64,000 bases of DNA from Octopus vulgaris (Eukaryota), in the NCBI GenBank assembly GCA_951406725.2, contig OX597818.1:102486001-102550000 (forward strand), in the 5' to 3' direction. Every line of letters starts with the position of its first letter. Positions within the stretch are counted from its first letter, which is position 1. The notes under the pieces are model-generated. The model saw only the letters and a list, made by a program, of their open reading frames with translations, made no database searches and was not told where the DNA came from. The translations under genes and the position numbers were made by a program. Shown here in pieces: positions 4,244-60,812 of this stretch.

Positions 4244-4474
4244 GTGACCGGCTATCAGATGTTACTACACACCGCTGGTCACAATGCGCTTCGCATTGTT
4301 TTAGCCTTCAAATGACGCCACCCCGCTGGCTAAGTGACCAGGCCAACAGAAGAAAGAGTGAGATAAAGTTGTGGCGAAAAAGTACAGCAGGGATTCCCAA
4401 CAACCCCTGCCGGAGCCTCATGGAGCTTTAGGTGTTTTTGCTCAATAAACACTCACAACGCCCGGTCTGGGAAA
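4244..4474 (-). mobile_element. tRNA-derived SINE family 3, 5'-truncated
   Basis: Near-identical to 8608-8880 (gccttcaaatgacgcca...ttcgctcaataaac...cgcccggtctg); ends in a TA tract. Confidence 0.85.
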
Positions 4475-8607: not shown

Positions 8608-8880
8608 AGCTACACATCGCTGGTCACAATGCTCTTCGCATTGTTTTAGCCTTCAAATGACGCCACTCCGCTGGCTAAGCGAGCAGGCCAACAGATGAAA
8701 GAGTGAGAGGAAGTTGCCGCGAAAGAGTACAGCAGTGATCGCCATCATCCCCTGCCGGAGAATCGTGGAGCTTTCGGTGTTTTCGCTCAATAAACATTCA
8801 CAACGCCCGGTCTGAGAATCAAAACCGCGATCCTACGACCGCGAGTTCGCTGCTCTAACCACTGGGCCATTGCGCCTCCA
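8608..8880 (-). mobile_element. tRNA-derived SINE family 3, with intact head
   Basis: Minus strand begins tggaggcgcaatggcccagtggttag (A box) with a ggtttTgattc B-box-like motif; homologous copies at 4244, 27500, 48860. Confidence 0.88.
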
Positions 8881-9379
8881 CGTATGAGTATTTAGTTATA
8901 ATGTATGAGTATCATAACGAGTGGATTCACATATAATAGACGTAAAACGTATTTGCTATTACTATTTTTAACTTATCGATATAAACAGCCAGAGCCGTTG
9001 GATTTTTAGATCTTTATTCATTTTACAAACGAGTTAAAATGCACCCTATACCTGACTCTGAAGTCAACAGTACTCTTTATGTATACTTCTCTGGTATCCT
9101 TTATGGTATTTATTTCGCATTTATATACGATGTCTCAGGTAGACACTGGCCGTTCAAAGCTCAGGTGTTTCGGGATCGACAGTTGCATCATTTTTTCCCG
9201 GTATACTAGCGTTATTATCAACGTTATTTCCCGATTTAAATCTATTGTTCGCTTCTATAATCGACCCCCAAATTTGGAGTCATATAATAGGATAATTTCA
9301 AAGATGATCTACTGAATAAAGAGTGAAACTTTGTGTCCTAAGGAGAAGTACCTATCAATTAACCTAAAAACATATTAGG

Positions 9380-9953: not shown

Positions 9954-10046
9954 CCTTTCTTTCCTGATGAGAAGATTACATAATGCACTCTTTATTCCTT
10001 TGGAATGAAAACATGCTGTCTTCGAAACATATGTCGAGAGTAAAGG
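9954..10046 (+). ncRNA. Type I hammerhead ribozyme with enlarged stem II
   Basis: ctttc-CTGATGA-gaaga...tcttc-GAAA-catatg-TC-gagag; stem I ctttc/gagag extended by ccttt/aaagg; palindromic stem III; GUC triplet. Confidence 0.8.
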
Positions 10047-14560: not shown

Positions 14561-14565
14561 GCCAT

Positions 14566-14898
14566 TTTATTTGTTTCAGTCATTTGACTGCGGCCATGCT
14601 GGAGCACTGCCTTTAGTCGAGCAGTTCGACCTAAGACTTATTCTTTGTAAGCCTAGTAATTATTCTATCGGGTAATTTTTGCGGAACCGCTAAGTTACAG
14701 GGACGTAAAAACACCAGCATCGGTTGTCAAGCTATGGTCGGGGGACAAATACAGACACACAAACACATACGCATACACATACATATATACGACAGGCTTC
14801 TTTCAGTTTCCGTCTACGAGATCCACTCACAAGGCATTGGTCGGCCCGAGGTGCCACGCAGTGGGAATGAACGCGGAACCATGTGGTTGTTAAGCAAC
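14566..14898 (-). mobile_element. SINE family 1, partly deleted
   Basis: Homologous to 22109-22525 (gactgcggccatgctggagcac; gacaggcttctttcagtttccgtctac). Confidence 0.88.
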
Positions 14899-16795: not shown

Positions 16796-17031
16796 TATTT
16801 CTTTCTTTATTGCCCACAAGGGGCTAAACAAACGGGGACAAAGAAGGACAGACAAAAGGATTCAGTCGATTACATCGACTCGAGTGAGTAACTGGTACTT
16901 AATTTATCGACCCCGAGAGGATGAAAGGCAAAGTTGACCTCGGCGGAATTTGAACTCAGAAGGTAACAGCAGACGAAGTACCGCTAAGCATTTCATCCAG
17001 CATGCTAGCGTTTCTGGCAGCTCGCCGCCTT
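16796..17031 (-). mobile_element. tRNA-derived SINE family 2
   Basis: Head ggcggcgagctgccagaaacgctag, B box gagttcaaattcc, body ggggtcgataaattaagtaccag; many copies in the window. Confidence 0.88.
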
Positions 17032-17712
17032 ATGTGTGTATATGTATATAAAGGTACATATATATATGTATGCATCAAAAGAGTACATTGGAAAAGGTTG
17101 GTAAATATTTTATGCCATGTTACACTTGTTTCCATATAGCTTAGGTGCTACAAAGTTAAACATGTAGAAAAACATTCACGGAATCTCCTATTCCTAATCG
17201 TCTAGGTAACGATTCAGAATTAAAACAAAATTGCTCCGAATTCTGCTGTCAGTTTCAATCGAGAGCATGTTGAAAGTTAGAAGGGAAAGTTAGATAATAT
17301 GAAAGATAATAATTAAGAGACTGTATGAACGAACGAGAGAAACTACATATATAACACACATATATATATACATATATGTGTGCGTATGTATGTATGTATG
17401 TATGTATATCACATACATTTACACTTCCTTTCGTAAAACCTGATATCTCTCTCACTATTCTCTTCTCCGCATTAAGGCTACGTTCCATGTGAAACACACA
17501 AGACAACAGAAGTGATCTGTGACTAAGCGCATTAATACTTTGCCTTTACAAACTGTTGAAACGCAAACTGAGCCCTATATCAACTTGGACACTGCACTCA
17601 ACACTGTTGATATCAATGATGGCATGCTATATGCTTTTCCCAGCGACAAACCGTCGCTGATCTCGAAAAAAGGAGAAATAAATTATATTAAATCTCTGAG
17701 AAAGAGTAGCAA

Positions 17713-18030
17713 TACAGAATCGTAACATATAACTGCCAACCAAGCGTAGCGTCCCATGCGGAACAGTGCTACTGACATTTATAACCTCAGGAAGACATCT
17801 CTTCCAGCTGGCTAATGACACACATTTTGTGTCCGGTTAGTATTTTCAAGGGAGGTTATCACTCCCATTTCTAGCCTTGCGTGATTCACACGGACTCGAG
17901 TTTCAGGGTGGTTATCCGTCCTCAGCATGCGTTTAGCACAGGCTACTGATGAAAACTCACACTACTCGCAAAATACTATGTGAGAATTCATCACTAGCTG
18001 CTGATTAACTCATGCTGAGGACGGGTAATC
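17713..18030 (-). mobile_element. Old copy of the 353-bp HHR element, with decayed HHR at 17887-17931
   Basis: Colinear similarity to 43897-44125 including cacacggactcgagtttc; CTGAGGA/GAAA core on the minus strand; short inverted copy at 18011-18030. Confidence 0.75.
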
Positions 18031-19789
18031 ATATATGATATGCAGTTGATTATACAAGTCTATAATTTACAATATATACTTCGTATATATTTTAATTTTA
18101 CTTATCATAAACATAACATGAAATAATGAAAAACCAAAGATTACTTAAATAAGGGAATTCGTGTAACGACCTGGTGAAATGCATCTTGTATAGAACCGCC
18201 TGAAGAAAGAAAGTTTATCTTGAAATGACACTAACAGCTGGTTATGAAGCTCCCGTCTGAATAAAGAAAATATCATGCGGATATCTGGGTGTGGTGAACT
18301 GTCCTTATTTAGAGTGAAAGTGACCAGATAAGCAAGGACCCGTTCGCTACTTGTATCCCTGAATTCCTGACCGGTATTTTTTTTTTCGAATATCCTCCTC
18401 AGGGTTTTGTATAATATTTTACAAACCTAGACTGGGTTGAGAGAAGATAATTTTGAGCATTATGTCGTTGTCAATTGCATGTGAAACGAGTGGTGTGAAA
18501 TATAGATATATGAGTTTGTTTTCGTCCCAAGTCTGCAGCAGTGGAAAAGAAACCGAATCAGCTTCAATAGTGTACAACGTTTGTTCATACAAAAAAAAAT
18601 GTATTTTTAATGTATATTTACATAACGTATATTACAGTAATAAAATAAGAATAATAGATACATACTACATAAAGTAAATATTTTCTTAAGTCGAAAAGTA
18701 AATGACTGACGTCTGGGCAAGAGAATCCATCTGAATAAAATAAAAGGATGATTTCTGTTCGGACCAAACAAATATCAAAGTTATTTGTGAAATTTTGTGT
18801 GGAAGAAGGAAAGAAAGCGAGAGGGAGAGAGAGAGAGAGAAGGAGAGACGCTGAAGAAAGACTATAGTTGTAAAGATTTTACCAATAATTATTCTTTTAG
18901 CTATTGTGACTATGCTGCCTTTAACATTTAGTACTGAATTTACGAATTTGCGTAGTGTACATATATTGTGCTAATTCTTTCGTCTGAGTTACGATATACT
19001 GTGATTATAGTAATTATAGATTTTACCTACGATATTATTTTCTGTAAATAACGTTTTGTATTCAGATTAACTTTATTTGTGTGCATATTGAAAATATATC
19101 TACACACATTTAGATGGAACAATGCTGTGAATTGTATTACAAACTGAATTTCTGCAGTCTATATCATTATCCTTCGGAACGAATTCACTTTTCCCAGGCA
19201 TAAACTTAGTAGTTTAACATATAATTTTGCAAGTTAATAATAACATTAACAGTTAAGAGGTTAACGATGTAATATTCTAGTGCAACTTCCAATAATGACC
19301 TCTAACACTCCATGGGATATTTTGAGGATTATATCAATCTTAATATTGCGAGCTAGGTTTTATAGCTACAGGTACAACGTAATGAGCACCGAAACACTAT
19401 GAACCGTATGCCGCGCAGCTCGTTATCTTCTACATATTACTGGAGGACGTCTCATCTTCAGCACGTTATCTTTCAAACATACAAACGTTGAGAGGGACTT
19501 TAATTTTGTCAAAAACCTAACAAAGCGAAATTGCTCAAGAGCGTGATCTTCTCTTTTTCCCCTTTTCCTTTCGATGAAATTTATTTGCCACGATACCTCA
19601 CTACTTATTCTTCAACTGTTTAAAGAAAATTCACTTTTGGCATTACACTGCTACGACAATAACTATAAAACAGCAGAGGGAAAACCGAAAATCGCTTTCG
19701 TAATGTTATATAATACCTTTTGCTTGTAAGTGTTCGAGGTCACAGTATTCTCCTCTGAACAGGACGCCGGTCAGTTACAGTATTCACAT

Positions 19790-22108: not shown

Positions 22109-22525
22109 GGCGCAGGAGTGGCTGTGTGGTAAGTAACTTGCTAAATAACCACATGGTTGCGGGTTCAGTCCCACTGCGTGGCATCTTGCGCAAGTGTCTT
22201 CTGCTATAGCCTCGGGCCGACCAATGCCTTGTGAGTGGATTTGGTAGACGGAAACTGAAAGAAGCCTGTCGTATATATGTATATATATATATATATATGT
22301 GTGCGTGTGTGTGTGTTTGTGTGTCTGTGTTTGTCCCCCTAGCATTGCTTGACAAGCGATGCTGGTGTGTTTACGTCCCCGTCACTTAGCGGTTCGGCAA
22401 AAGAGACCGATAGAATAAGTACTGGGCTTACAAAGAATAAGTCCCGGGGTCGATTTGCTCGACTAAATGCGGTGCTCCAGCATGGCCGCAGTCAAATGAC
22501 TGAAACGAGTAAAAGAGTAAAAGAG
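22109..22525 (+). mobile_element. Full-length SINE family 1 with internal (TA)(TG) microsatellite
   Basis: tRNA-like head ggcgcaggagtggctgtgtggtaag...gggttcagtccc; aagagtaa tail; near-identical to 45361-45793. Confidence 0.92.
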
Positions 22526-27497: not shown

Positions 27498-27819
27498 TAA
27501 CACAACGGTACCCCGTCGGTTACGGCGATGAGGATTCCAGTTGATCCAATCAATGTAATAGCCCTCTCGTGAAGTTAATGTGCAAGTGGCTGAGGGTTCG
27601 ACTGACACGTGTACCCTTAACGTAGTTCTCGGGGAGCTTCAGCTCGATACAGAGTGTGACATGACTAGTCCTTTGAAATACAGTCACAATAGAACAAGAA
27701 GAAAGGGTGAGAGAATGTTGCGGCGAAAGAGTACAGCAGGTCTCGCCTCCAGCTCTTCCTGGAGCCTCGTACAGATTTAAGTGTTTTCGCTCAATAAACA
27801 TAACACCCGGGAATCGAAA
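27498..27819 (-). mobile_element. SINE family 3 variant with a different 3' region
   Basis: Shares gcgaaagagtacagcagg...gtgttttcgctcaataaac with the 8608 copy. Confidence 0.75.
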
Positions 27820-30177: not shown

Positions 30178-30495
30178 AAATATAAATTAGAGATAAAACC
30201 ACAATTATGCAATTCAAACAATGATAGACATAAACCAAAACATAAATACCAAATAAAATATATTTTTTATAAAACATATAACTAGATCACAAAAAGTATA
30301 AAAATGAATATTCAATATATAATAAGTAATAAGTATACTTATACTTATTATTACTTACTATATATTGAATATTCCTTTTCATACGTTTTTGTGATCTAGT
30401 TATGTTTTATAAAGATATATTTTATTTATTTATGTTTTATATCTATCATTGCTTGAATTTCACAATAGTGGTTTTATCTCTACTTCATATTATAT
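30178..30495. repeat. ~155-bp-arm imperfect palindrome between TA tracts
   Basis: tagagataaaaccac / gtggttttatctcta and taactagatcacaaaaa / tttttgtgatctagtta; centre near 30340. Confidence 0.88.
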
Positions 30496-33688: not shown

Positions 33689-34663
33689 TATTTTATATTT
33701 GTATATATGCGCGTGTGTGTGTGTTTGTATATATAGTTATATATGGATACATTGTTGTTTCCAGTCTTTGCTCATTTTTATTATCGTTATTTTGTTGCTA
33801 TTCATTCGTCTTTGGGAACAATACAGCTATAAAGAATATAACAAGGAACCATTTTGAGAATGTATAATCAATGCTAACCGAAATTATTGAAGCAGATGTA
33901 ATATTTGCTAGGAGGTAGCGAGAAATGTAAGAAACATAATGATAGTTATGTAACAATATTATAAAATATCCACCAAAGAAATAATGATTTATAAAATATA
34001 GAAAAGGCGCAGTGAGGTAAAAATAGACAAAATAAAGAATTGTATATCATTTGAATAATACCTTATTGTTTGTAATGATTGCAACCGTTACGTAATAATA
34101 AAATTCTCCATCTCCGCTCCTTCTATTTCGGTAGGAAAATAAGTATAATAATTTAGATTTGCCTGCAGCTTTGGATTGCGTCAACTGATATATAGGTATA
34201 TTACGTTAAAGGGATAGTTTCACCACTATGTATCGTAGTATCATCTTTTGAGTGATCGAAGGTTCTGCTTTGAAATAAAATGGCATAACGATTCTGCGGA
34301 TTGTATCTGAATCAGTTTCTAGAAAATTTGGATGGCATTTTAATGACCTACCCGTCTTCTTTAGTACATTATCGATTTATTTACTCCGGGAAGGAGGGTA
34401 TACCTAATGTGAAAGATGAATATCTCACTGAAAATGGTGTTATTTTGTAAAATTCAAACTCTTCCCAGACGATGTGAAAAATCTCACATTCTACTATATT
34501 TCTACCTATGAAAAGATTCATCTCAAAGTAGCTATATATGATCATGCAAATGTAAATATACAGATTCCGCATCGAAATAATGTCAGGCCAAATCAACTAC
34601 ATTTTAAAATAACGTACCAGTGAATCTCAGTATTCTGTTGACACTAATACGTTTCCATTCTTC

Positions 34664-34792
34664 CCCGAGGTCGACTTAGCCTTTCATCCTTTCGGGGTCT
34701 ATAAATTCAGTATCAGTTTTATACTGGGGTCGATCTAATCGACTGGACCTCTCATCCAAAATTTCGAGCCTTGTGCCTAGAGTAGAAAATAA
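34664..34792 (+). mobile_element. SINE family 2 fragment
   Basis: ccgaggtcgacttagcctttcatcctttcggggtc...ctggggtcgatctaatcgact. Confidence 0.8.
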
Positions 34793-36283: not shown

Positions 36284-36499
36284 AGTCACCAACATAATAC
36301 ACGAAAACTCATTATAATTCTATCATCATTTATGTACTAAATAACCCCATTCACAAATTGCAAGATTGTTAGCCGTATTCAAATCATCAGGAAGAAAGAA
36401 TATGCTCAGCACTGACATTATAAGATACACAGTGTCTGTCACATAATAACATCTTTGATAAACACATACTTATCGGCCGAGATTTATAGGCGTAGATAC

Positions 36500-37015
36500 A
36501 TGGGCACAAGTGTATCTGTGGCGTAAGCAGATCGCTCTCCAGCATCATGGTTCCAGGTTCAGTCCCACTGCGTGACAGTTTACCCAGATGCCATGTTCTG
36601 TAGCCCGACACCGTCCAAAGCTTTGTGGGTAAATTTGGTAGACGGAAATTGAGTGAAACCCGTCGTAATTATATACATATTCATGTGTGCATGCATGTAT
36701 GTATTTATCTATGTATACACGCATATACACACACACACATGTATATATATATATATACATATACACATTTATATATATATATTTGTATTTGCATGCATGT
36801 AGTTATGACTCTATGTGCATGAGAATGTCTTTGTGTTGGTGTTCGTTTCCCATTACTCCTCGACAAACGGGCCTACTTTGTTTACATCCCTGTAACATAG
36901 CATTTCAGCAAAATAGACGGATGCATTAAGAACCAGTTTTCAAAAACATGATTTAAATACTGGTGTTTATTTCTCTGATTAAGCCCTAAAAACGTGGCGT
37001 CCCAATATGGGCGCA
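36500..37015 (+). mobile_element. Decayed SINE family 1
   Basis: catggttccaggttcagtcccactgcgtg...tttggtagacggaaa. Confidence 0.7.
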
Positions 37016-37443: not shown

Positions 37444-37644
37444 ATCCTTTCTACTTGAGGTACAGGGCCTCAAATTTGTGGAGAGGGGATTCTCGATTAC
37501 ATCGACCTAGTACTTAATTTAGCGACACCGAAAGGATGAAAGAAAAAGTTGACCTCTGTGGAATATGAACTCAGAAAAAAGAAGGCCGAAATACCGCTAA
37601 GCATTTAGCCCGCCAAGCTAACCGTTCTGCAAGCTCGTCGCCTT
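37444..37644 (-). mobile_element. SINE family 2
   Basis: gaaataccgctaagcattt...agctcgtcgcctt. Confidence 0.8.
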
Positions 37645-37809
37645 AAGATGATGAGGATAATAATGATACGAAGGAAAGATGGTGACCGTCGACACTTACA
37701 ATTTGAATTCACAATGAAGTTTGTCACAAATGGCCTTAAACGCTTATCGGAAAATTTCCGAAGACTGATTGCTAAAACTTGTCTTAAACCACGAAATCAA
37801 GATAACCAC

Positions 37810-40762: not shown

Positions 40763-40892
40763 TGATAACGTGCACATAAACACATGCCTTTGAAATATAT
40801 AAATACATAAAATAGCTATATGCGCATGGATGTCTATATCTATATGTATATACGCATATATTCTTATGAAGACAGTAGTTTTTAAGAGTATA

Positions 40893-41129
40893 CTCTTTTT
40901 ACTCATTTTACTTCTTTCAGTCATTTGACTGCGACCATGTTGGAGCACCACCTTTAGTCGAGCAAATCAATCCCAGGACTTATTCTTTGTATGCCTAGTA
41001 CTTATTCTATCGGTCTCTTTTGCAGAACCGCTGAGTTATGAGAACATAAACACACCAGCATCTGTTGTCCAAGGGATGTTTACGGAGGGGACAAACACAG
41101 ACACACAAAAATTAACACACAAACATACA

Positions 41130-41168
<39 letters not shown>

Positions 41169-41329
41169 GACGGGCTTCTTTCAGTTTCTGTCTGCCCAAT
41201 CTACTCACAAATCTTTGGTCAGCCCGAGGCTATACTAGAAGACACTTGCCCAAAGTGCCACGCAGTGGGACTCGACCCGGAACCTTGTGGTTCGTAAGCA
41301 AGCTACTTACCACACAGCCACTCCTACGC
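40893..41329 (-). mobile_element. Full-length SINE family 1
   Basis: Reverse-complement match to 22109-22525. Confidence 0.9.
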
Positions 41330-41355
41330 TTATATATCTATACATACATACATAC

Positions 41356-42253: not shown

Positions 42254-42303
<50 letters not shown>

Positions 42304-42538
42304 AATTCATAATTAATCAATATAGGGTGGCAAAAAAATTTTGTAGAATCTTATTGCCACCAGCGGCCTAGTGGGAAAAAAATTAAATAGTCATAAACCA
42401 TTTTTAAGTTCAACATCACAATCAAGGAACGGCCATAATAGGCCATTCACCCACTAGAAATAACAGCCAAAAGCTTCAACCGCAAAATAACATCAATTCC
42501 GTAAACCAGGAGAAAATTAAAAAAACATTTACCCTGTA

Positions 42539-42645
42539 ATTTCTTATACGATGCACCGTTTCGTCTACTGTTTAATGGTAAACTAACCTGATTAAATTAA
42601 ATCAAGCCAATCTACCATAGGCCCTTAGATTCATCAGTAAGAAAT
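42539..42645 (-). ncRNA. Type I hammerhead ribozyme, element A copy 1
   Basis: Reverse complement of 43112-43218. Confidence 0.72.
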
Positions 42646-43111
42646 AGCCAAGTCGGAACAGATATTTTTCACGAGGCAAACTCGTCCCTGCCTCGGCAAT
42701 ATCTGACCTAAAATTTTCAAATCATCGCACTCGCGCCAAATTTATCGGCAGCAAATAAATATAAGCCGCCGATTCCATTACGGAACTAACCAGAAAATTC
42801 ATAATTAATCAATATAGGGTGGCAAAAAAATTTTGTAGAATCTTATTGCCACCAGCGGCCTAGTGGGAAAAAATTAAATAGTCATAAACCATTTTTAAGT
42901 TCAACATCACAATCAAGGAACGGCCATAATAGGCCATTCACCCACTAGAAATAACAGCCAAAAGCTTCAACCGCAAAATAACATCAATTCCGTAAACCAG
43001 GAGAAAATTAAAAAAATTTGGCGCGAGTGCGATGATTTGAAAATTTTAGGTCAGATATTGCCGAGGCAGGGACGAGTTTGCCTCGTGAAAAATATCTGTT
43101 CCGACTTGGCT

Positions 43112-43218
43112 ATTTCTTACTGATGAATCTAAGGGCCTATGGTAGATTGGCTTGATTTAATTTAATCAGGTTAGTTTACCATTAAACAGTAGACGAAACG
43201 GTGCATCGTATAAGAAAT
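43112..43218 (+). ncRNA. Type I hammerhead ribozyme, element A copy 2
   Basis: atttctta-CTGATGA-(68 nt, tcta/taga)-GAAA-cggtgcatcg-TA-taagaaat; 8-bp stem I, GUA triplet; A-C mismatch at the base of stem II. Confidence 0.72.
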
Positions 43219-43601
43219 TACAGGGTAAATGTTTTTTTAATTTTCTCCTGGTTTACGGAATTGATGTTATTTTGCGGTTGAAGATTTTGGCTGTTATTTC
43301 TAGTGGGTGAATGGCCTATTATGGCCGTTCCTTGATTGTGATGTTGAACTTAAAAATGGTTTATGACTATTTAATTTTTTCCCACTAGGTCGCTGGTGGC
43401 AATAAGATTCTACAAAATTTTTTGCCACCCTATATTGATTAATTATGAATTTTCTGGTTAGTTCCGTAATGGAATCGGCGGCTTATATTTATTTGCTGCC
43501 GATAAATTTGGCGCGAGTGCGATGATTTGAAAATTTTAGGTCAGATATTGCCGAGGCAGGGACGAGTTTGCCTCGTGAAAAATATCTGTTCCGACTTGGC
43601 T

Positions 43602-43708
43602 ATTTCTTACTGATGAATCTAAGGGCCTATGGTAGATTGGCTTGATTTAATATAATCAGGTTAGTTTACCATTAAACAGTAGACGAAACGGTGCATCGTA
43701 TAAGAAAT
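43602..43708 (+). ncRNA. Type I hammerhead ribozyme, element A copy 3
   Basis: Same motif 490 nt downstream of copy 2, with one substitution in a loop. Confidence 0.72.
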
Positions 43709-43827
43709 TACAGGGTAAATGTTTTTTTAATTTTCTCCTGGTTTATGGAATTGATGTTATTTTGCGGTTGAAGCTTTTGGCTGTTATTTCTAGTGGGTGA
43801 ATGGCCTATTATGGCCGTTCCTTGATT

Positions 43828-43868
<41 letters not shown>

Positions 43869-44080
43869 CAATGATAAATATCAAAGTGAGTTATATACAG
43901 TAGCGGTAACACATCGTGACGTATTTTTGCCATTTCAATATGGCTAACCCCTAAGGGTGGATGCTACTGTAGTTTTTAGCCCCAGGAGGACACACTCCTC
44001 CAGCTGGCCATAGACACACTATCTGTGTCCTGTCAGTATTTGCAAAGGGAAGTCATCCTTCCCGTCTTCAACTTATGATA

Positions 44081-44125
44081 CACACGGACTCGAGTTTCGA
44101 GGTATTGACCTCTCGTCAGCGTGTG
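44081..44125 (-). ncRNA. Canonical minimal type I hammerhead ribozyme
   Basis: cacacg-CTGACGA-gagg tcaata cctc-GAAA-ctcgag-TC-cgtgtg: perfect core, 6-bp stem I, palindromic stem III, GUC. Confidence 0.92.
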
Positions 44126-44423
44126 ACAATCATAGTTGTCGCCGAGAATTAGATTTCCTTCACAAATACTTATACTTTTTCCAGCGTCCACTGTCGCTGA
44201 TATTGAAAAAGTGAAATCAAACAATGATAAATATCAAAGTGAGTTATATACAGTAGCGGTAACACATCGTGACGTATTTTTGCCATTTCAATATGGCTAA
44301 CCCCTAAGGGTGGATGCTACTGTAATTTTTAGCCCCAGGAGGACACACTCCTCCAGCTGGCCATAGACACACTATCTGTGTCCTGTCAGTATTTGCAAAG
44401 GGAAGTCATCCTTCCCGTCTTCC

Positions 44424-44464
44424 CGCTGACGAGAGGTCAATACCTCGAAACTCGAGTCCGTGTG
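44424..44464 (+). ncRNA. HHR copy with the 5' strand of stem I truncated by the inversion
   Basis: cg-CTGACGA-gaggtcaatacctc-GAAA-ctcgag-TC-cgtgtg. Confidence 0.75.
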
Positions 44465-44630
44465 TATCATAAGTTGAAGACGGGAAGGATGACTTCCCTT
44501 TGCAAATACTGACAGGACACAGATAGTGTGTCTATGGCCAGCTGGAGGAGTGTGTCCTCCTGGGGCTAAAAACTACAGTAGCATCCACCCTTAGGGATTA
44601 GCCATATTGAAATGGCAAAAATACGTCACG

Positions 44631-44661
<31 letters not shown>

Positions 44662-44878: not shown

Positions 44879-45360
44879 GTACATATGTAGGTACGTATGT
44901 CAAGGGATCCAAGTGCAGAAAGTTTGTAAGCTTCGAACTTTTTTGCTGCTATTATAGACGACAAAAACATGGCGATATAGTATAAAACGATTTTATGAAC
45001 AAATAATTATTTGCGACAGAAGCAGAAATAATATGTAATAAAAGTTAACATTATTCCAACTTAAAAGAGGATGCTATGGTAGGACATAGAATACTACCAT
45101 AGTTACTATGATGGCTGAAATCACGTTATCTGATAACTATCGTAGTGTATTAACATCGTAATTTACACATCGTATGGCATATTGAAATCAGAAGAAATTT
45201 CGATAACCTCATTTTGAACGCACGCTAGCAAAGTAATGATTGTTCCATACTTGGTAACATACATAGAAGTAGCCTTCCTAATCTCCAGTTCTTATATTCA
45301 TAACATCTTTCAATTTGTCAAATATATCTTTACGTCATCGAGCGTGCGTGTATATATATA

Positions 45361-45571
45361 CTCTCTTTTACTCTTTTACTTGTTTCACTCATTTGACTGC
45401 GGCCATGCTGGAGCACCGCCTTTAGTCGAGCAAATCGACCCCAGAACTTATTCTTTGTAAGCCCAGTACTTATTCTATCGGTTTCTTTTGCCGAACCGCT
45501 AAGTGACGGGGACGTAAACACACCAGCATCGGTTGTCAAGCAATGCTAGGGGGACAAACACAGACACACAG

Positions 45572-45634
<63 letters not shown>

Positions 45635-45793
45635 TACGACAGGCTTCTTTCAGTTTCCGTCTACCAAATCCACTCACAAGGCATTGCTCGGCCCGGAGCT
45701 ATAGCAGAAGACACTTGCCCAAGATGACACGCAGTGGGTCTGAAGCCGGAACCATGTGGTTGGTTAGCAAGCTACTTACCACACAGCCACTCC
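45361..45793 (-). mobile_element. Full-length SINE family 1
   Basis: Near-identical reverse complement of 22109-22525. Confidence 0.92.
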
Positions 45794-47088
45794 TTTTTAA
45801 ATATCTTTATGGGATTTTTTCGGAAGCTTCGTAATGCTTGGAAATAAATTTTCCTCGTCTTATATTTAATTTTGGTTTCAAATGATTTTGGAATTTTACT
45901 ACTATAAAAAAAAATATCTTGTAATGCGTATATATAGCTTTCATATATAGTGTTTAAAGCGTTTTGTTTCTAATTATTGATATTGGTTCAGGTATGCTTA
46001 GTTTTACTTTAATTTAATCCGATTTATCTATCACTATATATAATTCAAAACTAATTGTACAATTTCTCACATACAAAATTAGACGTTCTCATAAAAAATA
46101 TAACGCATTTAGCATTCTTGCGTATAAATGTCTCAAAAGATTCTATAATCATGTATAATCTATGTTAATCTTCTTGTCTTCACATTATTTCTTTCATTCA
46201 TATATATTCTTTTTATAAACTATATCTTGTAATCTTATAATCTACATAGTTGACGCTTATACTTGTCTGTAAATACTCTGAAGACGTGACTCATCAACAT
46301 ATCAGACCTTTGAAGAATTACACTCACATATTAAGTCGTTGAAAGCAGATTCCTGAATCTAATATAATTCATGCATATTTAATGTAATGAAGACTTACAT
46401 TAAATGTGTATGTGAAGCTAAGTAATATATCTCTCATTCTATCTATTTAAGCATTTATGAATATAACAAACAATCTATTCATCTATTTATTCAACTATGC
46501 ATATATATATATATATATATAAAACTTCAAATGCTTGCCTCGCTTTAAAGTTTGTTGGCCTCTTTAACAATTATATATTATATATTCGCTACATCGGAAA
46601 TATGCAATAGCTCCAGAACTACCGTCTCGGCTAAACTATGGAGCCCTAGTAATCCGTTATAGCACTTAACTAATCGTTTAGATCACCTACGAACTACACA
46701 CCCATAAGTTGTACATATATATATATATATCATAAAAAGTCAAAACAACATTTAGTTCCAAGCATTACGAAGCTTCCGAAAAATCCCATAAATACTCGCG
46801 ATTGAAAGCTGGGTAATGAGAAGATATTTAAAAAGACTCGACATGAATTGCGAATTAGATGATTTGAAGATGAAAATCTTAAATATATTTTCTTCTATCT
46901 TCAGCGCAATATATATCAAATATGTACTAAGCAGTGTTTATAACAAAGCAGTGTCCATAACAAAGCGATTTTGCACGTCTATACACAAACACTTGCAAGT
47001 ATAGATTCGAAAGAGTCAGTACTTGTGGAGGTTTTTTGTAGCTTCGTAATGCTTGGACATTAAATCAGTATGTAGGTATGTATGTACG

Positions 47089-47142
<54 letters not shown>

Positions 47143-47269
47143 CATGTATATATATATATATATATATATATATTTAACAATGAGGGAGATAAATTAATAT
47201 TAATTTTAATATCAATTTAAAACCAGTAGTCCAGCATACAAAAATCTGAGAAATCAGAGAAAATTCTAA

Positions 47270-47518
47270 TATATGTGTATATTGGCAGGGCTTACTGCTA
47301 GGGAGTCGGCCGTATGCTAGAAATAGACCATCAACGATCAAACTACAAGGAAATTCTCTAGAGGAAAAATACAGCGAACACCAGAACCAACTTTGGCGGG
47401 CATGACAGATGAAAATTTATATTAAAAACAGAATTTCCTCTAGAGAATGTCCTTGTAGTTTGATCGTTGATGGTCTATTTCTAGCATACGGCCGACTCCC
47501 TAGCAGTAAGCCCTGCCA

Positions 47519-47530
<12 letters not shown>
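47270..47530. repeat. ~97-bp near-perfect inverted repeat with ~65-bp spacer, within a TA-flanked insert (47175-47530)
   Basis: attggcagggcttactgctagggagtcggccgtatgctagaaatagacc... and its reverse complement at 47433-47530. Confidence 0.92.
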
Positions 47531-47572
<42 letters not shown>

Positions 47573-48853: not shown

Positions 48854-49391
48854 AAAATAAAATAAATGCGCCATTTTAAAGCCTAGACTGGCTCATGGGT
48901 CCGGTTTCCCGGTTTCTATGGCGTACGTATTCTACCCAGCTGGACGGGACGCCAGACCATTGCAGCGTTACTCAAAGATCAGGAAGAAAGAGTGAGAGTA
49001 CAGCAGGAGTCACCACCACCCCTGTCGGAGCTTTAGGTGTTTTCGCCCAACAAACACACACAACGCCCAGTCTAGGAAGCGAAATCGCGATCCTCCCACC
49101 GCGAGTTCGCTGCCCTAATCAGTGGACCATTGCGCCTCCACATCGCCCTTTTAAAGCCTAGCCAGGCTCATGGGTCCGGTTTCGCGATTTCTATGGCGTA
49201 TGCGTTCCCCAGCTGGACGGGATGCCAGTCCATTGCAGCGTTACTTATTTTTGCCAGCTGAGGGGACTGGAGTAACGTGAAATGAAGTGTTTTGCTCAAG
49301 AACACGACGCGTCAGCCAGTCCGGGAATTGAAACCACAATATTACGATCATGATGCTGACACCCTATCCACTAAGCCACTGGCCTCCACTG
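48854..49391 (-). mobile_element. Composite of two tRNA-headed SINEs sharing a 3' tail, with a 12-bp TSD
   Basis: Heads end at ~49390 and ~49140; tail ttttaaagcctag...ggctcatgggtccggtttc occurs twice; ttcacattatta at 48842 and 49392. Confidence 0.8.
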
Positions 49392-60144: not shown

Positions 60145-60812
60145 TTATTTCCCATTTTTGCCACAAAGGCAGCTTGGGGGAGATGGGGGAGATGGGAGAG
60201 ATGGGGCGAATCCATTACATCACCACAAGTGTTCAACTGGTATTTATTTTATCGACATCTAAAGGATGAATGTTAAAGTCCGCCTGGTTGGAATTTGAAT
60301 TCAGACTGGGCGTAATGACGCTAAGCATTTCGTCCGGCGCGCTAACGGTTCTGTCAGCTCACCGCCTTATTTATTATTGATAATCCTTTCTATTATAGAC
60401 ACAAAGCGTTAAATTGTGCGGAGGGGGAATAGTCGATTACATCGACCCTAGTGTGTCACTGGTACTTAATTTATCGATCCCGAAATGATGAAAGGGAAAA
60501 TCGACCTTGGCGGAATTTGAACTGAGAACGTAGCGACGAGAGAAATACCGCTAATAATTTTGCCCGTCTTGCTAACGATTCTTATTTCTTTATTGTCCAC
60601 AAGAAGCTAAACATAGAGGGGACAAGCAAGGACAGACAAAGGAATACAATCGATAACATCGACCCCAGTGCGTAACTGGTAATTAATTTATCGACCCCGA
60701 AAGGATGAAAGTCAATGTGGACCTCGGCGGATTTTGAACTCAGAACTTAAGGACTGACGAAATACCGCTAAGCATTTCGCTCGGCTTGCTAATCATTCTG
60801 CCAGCTCGCTAC
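60145..60812 (-). mobile_element. Three head-to-tail SINE family 2 copies
   Basis: ttatcga...ggatgaa...tttgaa(c/t)tcag...gctaa motif block occurs three times. Confidence 0.85.

Follow-up and report, generated by a model that had tools for sequence, protein, structure and literature searches.

How a protein-free, ribozyme-bearing sequence comes to lie within a TA microsatellite of the Octopus vulgaris genome, and whether it should be regarded as a retrozyme, as the product of a Penelope-like element (PLE), or as both, is the question raised by element B. The element lies in a window of 64,000 nucleotides (assembly GCA_951406725.2, contig OX597818.1, forward-strand positions 102,486,001 to 102,550,000), whose first letter is position 1 in all coordinates given here. 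It is a 766-base non-coding insert (43867-44632) with both outer ends in (TA)n: the target tract on the left (43831-43867) separates B from its neighbour, element A, while that on the right (44631-44653) has its first AT in common with the end of the insert. A target-site duplication is not readable within (TA)n. Positions within the unit are counted from the predicted ribozyme cut, with +1 at 44086. The long arm of the insert (43867-44422, minus strand) measures 556 bp, or 1.58 head-to-tail units, and runs from +18, across the cut site, to +220. It is composed of one complete 353-bp unit (43867-44219, minus strand) followed by a 5'-cut second unit of 203 bp (44220-44422, minus strand, +18 to +220), a pseudo-LTR-like direct repeat without a ribozyme. 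The 353-bp period that was originally proposed is real, as 43867-44069 and 44220-44422 are copies that differ at a single one of 203 bp (G at 43972, A at 44325), but the tandem holds 1.58 copies and not two or more. The span first assigned to B also contains an extra structure, an inverted arm of 209 bp (44424-44632, plus strand), which, read in reverse complement, equals 43913-44121 apart from a single mismatch (44597), runs from +319 across the cut site to +174 and is itself 5'-cut. A single untemplated base at 44423 joins the direct and inverted arms head to head; the RNA 5' ends of the two arms meet at this junction and the 3' ends point to the TA tracts. The outer ends of the arms differ by 46 nt, a 'tail' (43867-43912, minus strand, +175 to +220) that is found at the outer end of the long arm and not at that of the inverted arm. 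Overall, the copies within B are 99.5% alike.

The feature that gives the unit its identity is a hammerhead ribozyme. A strict type I descriptor run over both strands of the 64 kb returned a single match, on the minus strand at 44125-44081, with C3 at 44119, C17 at 44087 and the predicted cut between 44087 and 44086. All 12 core bases are present, helix I has 6 bp and helix II 5 bp, and in helix III a tetraloop caps a stem of 2 bp, the two together making an exact 8-nt palindrome. Helix I continues past a 3x1 internal loop into a distal stem of 10 bp, and the extended helix (44069-44138, minus strand, 6+6+4 bp) has +1 to +18 as its 3' strand; the inner end of the long arm, at +18, is the foot of this helix. 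A relaxed descriptor that admits a helix II of up to 40 nt found no match in any of 30 block-shuffled windows. The Rfam model Hammerhead_1 aligns with the B site over its full length (1-45 of 45) at 32.2 bits and an E-value of 1.6e-5, which is 1.8 bits short of the gathering score of 34, and at gathering level the 64-kb window has no Rfam match. In the hammerhead of the inverted arm (44424-44464) little is left of helix I's 5' strand, and Rfam matches it at 44424-44460 with 25.2 bits. Searches with the sequence pattern of the B motif gave no matches in metagenome contigs, viral contigs and prokaryote genomes. One hit obtained with a looser pattern (L001) was set aside as chance: it falls within a GC-rich bacterial coding region and is without helix I. 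In the window itself, the relaxed scan also picked up a loose hammerhead-like sequence at 9959-10040 (helix I of 5 bp with wobbles, helix II region of 53 nt) that is probably fortuitous.

By the definitions set out by Cervera and de la Pena (2014, PMC4209133), the B hammerhead is of the canonical animal type I form. The earlier label of a minimal hammerhead has to be given up, because B possesses both helix III and its loop. The minimal hammerheads of PLE pseudo-LTRs described in that source resemble B in being type I, in having a palindrome at 15.2-16.2 and in the dimeric cutting proposed for them. They are characterised there by the lack of helix III and loop 3, a helix II of 7-8 bp, a helix I of 4-5 bp and an extra base after A9, whereas B has helix III with a tetraloop, a helix II of 5 bp, a helix I of 6 bp with its distal stem, and no extra base.

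The unit shows a number of retrozyme properties: a whole-core hammerhead, a length between 150 and 450 bp, no protein coding (the longest ATG frame has 38 codons), a GC content below 50% (42.5%) and a strongly self-paired circle. The predicted circle of the 353-nt unit folds at -115.8 kcal/mol with a z-score of -6.0 against 100 dinucleotide shuffles, the antisense circle having a z-score of -4.1. That B carries a retrozyme-sized, non-coding unit with a whole-core type I hammerhead is thus borne out, and so is the placing of its size within the range of animal non-LTR retrozymes (353 bp against 150-450 bp in PMC7229834). The metazoan non-LTR retrozymes of that study (Cervera and de la Pena 2020) are likewise non-coding units of 150-450 bp with type I hammerheads and a GC content below 50%, arranged as head-to-tail copies with a strongly self-paired predicted circle; published examples from coral, mussel and axolotl span 170-400 nt, with sizes of about 350-390 in the mussel and of 331 and 353 in the axolotl. 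B differs from them in that its locus holds a single whole ribozyme, and hence a daughter copy rather than a source array; its inverted arm and tail have no counterpart in the passages of PMC7229834 compared with it, and the likeness of B to these elements is one of architecture. B is most likely a retrozyme of a kind already known from many animals. The words 'octopus' and 'cephalopod' do not occur in the main text of PMC7229834, and no report of a cephalopod retrozyme was found in the literature searched, a body that excludes Repbase, subscription journals and supplements, any of which may hold the family. B would extend retrozymes to a cephalopod, with no earlier report in that literature.

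The anatomy of its insertion matches that of a PLE. The layout published for PLEs consists of a partial tandem, an inverted 5'-truncated copy, an optional tail of 30-40 bp at one end and a bias towards microsatellites (PMC8557442), and copies are most often head to head, with pLTRs sufficing in trans (PMC3846280). B displays the partial tandem (pseudo-LTR), the inverted 5'-truncated head-to-head copy, the tail and the TA target; its tail of 46 nt, like that of element A (110 nt), exceeds the published length. EN-bearing PLEs (Penelope/Poseidon, Neptune, Nematis and Hydra), as portrayed in PMC8557442, PMC3846280 and PMC11167929, share with B two direct repeats and one inverted repeat in head-to-head order, a tail at one end, an AT-rich or (TA)n target, and a hammerhead upstream of the RT start sites. 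B differs from these elements in having no RT or GIY-YIG ORF, a body of less than 200 bp and a tail of 46 nt. Among other PLEs, the Naiads are said in the text of PMC8557442 to prefer (TA)n, to be without canonical hammerheads and to be dead in cephalopods, and the same source mentions non-autonomous PLEs with pseudo-LTRs and head-to-tail copies in algae. Consistent with the absence of an RT or GIY-YIG ORF from B, a Pfam search of 150 of the 237 stop-free frames of the window (at least 62 aa, microsatellite frames removed) found RT or GIY-YIG families in none of the 150; its two weak matches both fell below the cut-offs. The 38-codon frame, which starts at +154, was considered as the remnant of a PLE ORF and dismissed, as it has no Pfam match and its ATG is not kept in an older relative of the unit. 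No tRNA genes were found in the 64-kb window.

By its anatomy, element B is both a retrozyme and a PLE-type insertion without an ORF. The original prediction had set the two against each other, in that a unit occurring only in attachment to PLE ORFs was to count against a retrozyme; the freedom from ORFs holds for B, the opposition does not. A similar origin was argued by Li, Clavereau and Pollet (2026, bioRxiv 10.64898/2026.07.22.740005), who hold animal retrozymes to be non-autonomous PLEs and who, in a further parallel with B, describe monomeric 'offspring' copies. Their evidence consists of co-occurrence and pLTR homology in vertebrates (the invertebrates being three insects and one coral), unlike the evidence from B, which is insertion anatomy (tail, inversion and TA target). 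PLE insertion hallmarks on a non-coding hammerhead unit accordingly provide a separate line of support for PLE-driven mobilisation. By the definition of an 'active' retrozyme in Li et al., namely a run of no fewer than two consecutive units that carry whole hammerheads, B falls outside the class; having one whole ribozyme, a second that is cut and lies on the other strand, it is filed as a daughter copy.

Would the ribozyme of B act alone or in pairs? The lowest-energy fold of the monomeric hammerhead is inactive (-24.2 kcal/mol, against -18.3 kcal/mol for the active fold, a gap of about 6 kcal/mol), and the pair probability of helix III is 0.0 in the monomer, whether alone or within the circle. 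When two copies are folded together, the lowest-energy structure (-53.1) is the catalytically arranged dimer. These predictions, made with a nearest-neighbour model that leaves out tertiary contacts and magnesium, suggest that the B ribozyme would favour dimeric cleavage. The earlier claim that the palindromic stem implies cutting as a dimer therefore finds in silico backing, but 'implies' is too strong a word, since single-ribozyme constructs of the coral and mussel hammerheads cleave well (PMC7229834). Of nine predicted dimers of Xenopus retrozymes, one cut in vitro and eight remained uncut (bioRxiv 10.64898/2026.07.22.740005). With its one whole ribozyme, the B locus is predicted to release neither a monomer nor a circle, and in the modelled read-through transcript the whole ribozyme would be buried in a hairpin with the inverted arm.

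Beyond the window, unit B belongs to a family that can be traced in public sequencing runs. Of the 24 runs listed, 20 (from 11 studies and under nine coded organism labels) contain 87-95% of the sampled unit-B words; all 24 are contigs, carrying no read starts, ends or strand, and none is on record as RNA. Four of the 20 (X1, X6, X8 and X20) were compared in detail with one period of the unit (43990-44342). The two DNA-like runs hold 3620 and 2779 unit-B contigs in all identity bands down to 85%, and the summed depth of unit-B contigs reaches 10^5-10^6 against 40-60 for many single contigs, a sum that is not to be read as a copy number. Unit B is a large and diverse repeat family in these four runs. 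Near-identical sequence occurs under nine organism labels, two of them within one study, for which related species, mixed samples or carry-over, including carry-over of an abundant RNA, are possible sources. In 23 contigs of X6 and 38 of X20 the sequence leaves the unit at 44269 (+171) for an AT-rich flank, and the short end of B (+172 to +174) is therefore the common end of the family. The 20 loose-end rows listed, beside which 301 further rows exist, include none at +220. For the four runs 11 joints are listed, and the inversion junction of B is none of them, although contigs testify to presence and not to absence. Joints that go back by 353 were given no weight as signs of tandems, the aligned stretch being exactly one period.

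Sequence variation within the family bears on whether the ribozyme matters. Seven positions vary over the 33 nt from C3 to C17, all of them outside the 12 core bases (p 0.027); the count is restricted to variants that exceed 8%, in contigs of 85% likeness or more, and misses rare and strongly diverged ones. The variable sites are N7, loop II, loop III and three positions of helix II, two of the helix II variants being partners of one pair (A-U to G-C if they sit on the same molecule); in the extended helix I the bulged base is the only variant listed. An older relative of unit B, element C, lies elsewhere in the window (17624-17929, minus strand). It aligns with 217 of 298 bases identical and a score of 203, against a maximum of 40 in 200 shuffles, is about 27% diverged, and retains homology to about +274, beyond the tail. 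Its hammerhead has kept the core and helix III, while helix II and distal helix I have changed and still fold. The ribozyme motif thus looks selected, as the variants spare the core and so distant a relative keeps it.

Several smaller observations belong to the family. A subfamily in X8, X6 and X20 has a different distal helix I, which is clipped as loose ends at 44067-44069, and an A of loop III changed to G; its palindrome would still pair by way of G-U. Relative C has a fold-back at 17908-18032 (within 17624-18032), where the 5' half of the hammerhead appears again on the other strand; helix II is mismatched at its base. Weak matches of 24-29 nt to the tail end of unit B, on opposite strands and near TA tracts at 30211-30234 and 30435-30463, may be due to chance. 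In run X1 a single contig of 383 nt (353 + 30) closes as a loop round the whole unit with one difference from it, and is without the variants that, in the other three runs, account for about 15-70% of summed depth at positions 44021, 44028, 44032 and 44053. The loop fits a circular RNA, a tandem transcript, or the DNA of a species with a simpler family; the RNA status of X1 is a guess, and a tandem DNA array gives a like loop.

The two insertions that share the TA tract offer a comparison. Element A (42303-43832) is built head to head from a unit of 490-492 bp, with arms of 714 and 819 bp whose ends lie 110 nt apart. Its three whole type I hammerheads (C3 at 42637 on the minus strand and at 43120 and 43610 on the plus strand) have a helix II of 68 nt, on account of which Rfam misses them. 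One arm runs from +22 to +242 and crosses one cut site, the other from +294 to +132 and crosses two. As the right arm has two whole ribozymes in tandem, A, unlike B, may be able to release a 490-nt monomer. Aligned with each other, A and B yield nothing longer than a 9-nt chance word, and the description of two sequences unrelated to one another, of similar architecture, in one TA tract and separated by about 35 bp of (TA)n (43831-43867) is upheld. The short ends of A and B seemed to have a motif in common, but it was discarded, as 625 of 10947 random window pairs score equally well. The tailed arms of both elements stop some 20 nt behind the cut site, A at 43232 (+22) and B at 44422 (+18), a coincidence noticed after the fact in two cases and put forward here as a hypothesis. 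Of the pure (TA)n in the window, 3036 bp in all, 214 bp lie in the tract that holds A and B. The probability of two TA-biased insertions in one tract is about 0.03, but the pair was chosen after the fact. PLEs are reported to insert in or beside earlier PLE copies (PMC6765202). Given this habit and the post hoc selection, no special hotspot of insertion, such as had been suggested, needs to be invoked.

Taken together, B is most likely a recent, protein-free daughter copy of a retrozyme family, that is, of a non-autonomous PLE, and would have been inserted by a PLE RT-endonuclease supplied in trans. Tandem source arrays elsewhere would be transcribed into multimers, in which neighbouring hammerheads would pair by way of the palindromic helix III and cut as dimers, yielding 353-nt monomers that a host ligase can close; a lone monomer would tend to misfold and stay uncut. 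The PLE protein may then nick both strands of AT-rich DNA and prime one cDNA from each of two start points inside the RNA, +174 and +220; the distance between them would be the tail. Both cDNAs would read across an intact cut site, and repair would join their two ends head to head. Frangieh et al. (2024, PMC11167929) showed that in vitro a PLE protein cleaves AT-rich DNA on both strands and extends the two, and that it uses uncut RNA with two internal start sites, the spacing of which equals the tail. At every step B agrees with this model, apart from having no ORF.

Since both arms of B cross the cut site, the template would have been either a religated circle or a multimer that was uncut or cut in part; a cut linear monomer could not have served without a jump. 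We give an uncut or partly cut multimer an even chance of having been the template, and a religated circle copied past one round close to an even one. The difference at +115 between the direct copies leans slightly towards a multimer with unlike units, as the X1 loop agrees with the inner copy, showing no differences from it over 44299-44342 (a stretch that includes +115 and is one table entry). Classic L1 twin priming served as a comparison for the inverted arm and was rejected, as the second priming site is the fixed end of the family and does not lie beside the stop of the first cDNA.

How far the ribozyme contributes to this cycle is where the alternatives diverge. It is possible, if doubtful, that the unit is a non-autonomous PLE with the ribozyme as a passenger that rarely cuts, linear multimers being the sole template and stable circles never forming. 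As a passenger ribozyme would have it, all four arms of A and B pass over uncut sites, misfolding is predicted for the monomer, and the direct copies that differ at +115, with X1 equal to the inner one, hint at a template of unlike units; mutating the hammerhead leaves PLE insertion in vitro unimpaired, and the text of PMC11167929 reports no RNA reads that ended at the cut site. Set against this are a core spared by the variants and kept in a relative about 27% diverged, the abundant circles made by coral and mussel units of like kind (PMC7229834), and the one clean loop of X1 without the variants common in the other three runs. The contrary extreme strikes us as rather unlikely. It supposes an active, very high-copy retrozyme family, present as an abundant 353-nt RNA circle, whose insertions would be a record of the mechanism as a whole. 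On the circle the PLE enzyme would start at the fixed sites +174 and +220, roll past the religated bond and halt on reaching the foot of the ribozyme's long helix I, at +18 in B and at about +22 in the unrelated A, such that the hammerhead fold, and not only the cut, would set the length of the copy. If this were true, two unrelated families side by side would constitute a direct genomic test of retrozyme mobilisation and of the circle template.

A reading that denies the unit any independent 353-nt existence, and sees in B the debris of an autonomous PLE, namely pseudo-LTRs remaining from an element that had lost its ORF no later than insertion, is improbable. It draws on known pLTRs of about 190-220 bp with hammerheads (PMC4209133, PMC3846280), on the start of the 38-codon frame inside the repeat, as in PLE ORFs, and on the summed contig depth in X6 and X20, which over +1 to +170 exceeds that of the remaining unit about 2- to 5-fold, from which it would follow that this half is common to other elements, perhaps an autonomous one. 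However, the unit closes on itself without coding sequence both in the window and in one contig of an independent run, the frame lacks a Pfam match and has lost its ATG in C, and the homology of C reaches past the tail. It is more improbable still that a fold-back artefact of assembly or library produced the inverted arm, or all of the A+B block, or that A and B stem from one chimeric event. The near-identity of the copies, the 35 bp between A and B and the junction missing from the joints listed for the four runs are what such an origin would lead one to expect. Yet every copy has a difference of its own, the arm ends exactly at the common end of the family and in (TA)n, A and the older C have head-to-head inversions with other breakpoints, and pure (TA)n separates A from B, each with its own two outward ends. 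The family to which B belongs, young, fixed at its ends and represented by thousands of variant contigs, provides good material on circles versus uncut multimers and on the role of the ribozyme.

The surrounding window is rich in other repeats. A two-part SINE-like repeat with a microsatellite in its middle is present in at least five copies (14565-14897, 22114-22525, 36493-36680, 40889-41333 and 45357-45794); this repeat (e.g. 45363-45794) and the microsatellite load we take to be typical of octopus genomes. A second dispersed family occurs at 16799-17030, 34661-34745, 37446-37645 and 60209-60809, including a tandem run with a period of about 220 bp near 60200-60800, and a third at 4265-4473, 8610-8881, 27697-27801 and 48869-49245. 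Finally, a 260-bp imperfect inverted repeat beside TA tracts at 47269-47532 is possibly a MITE.
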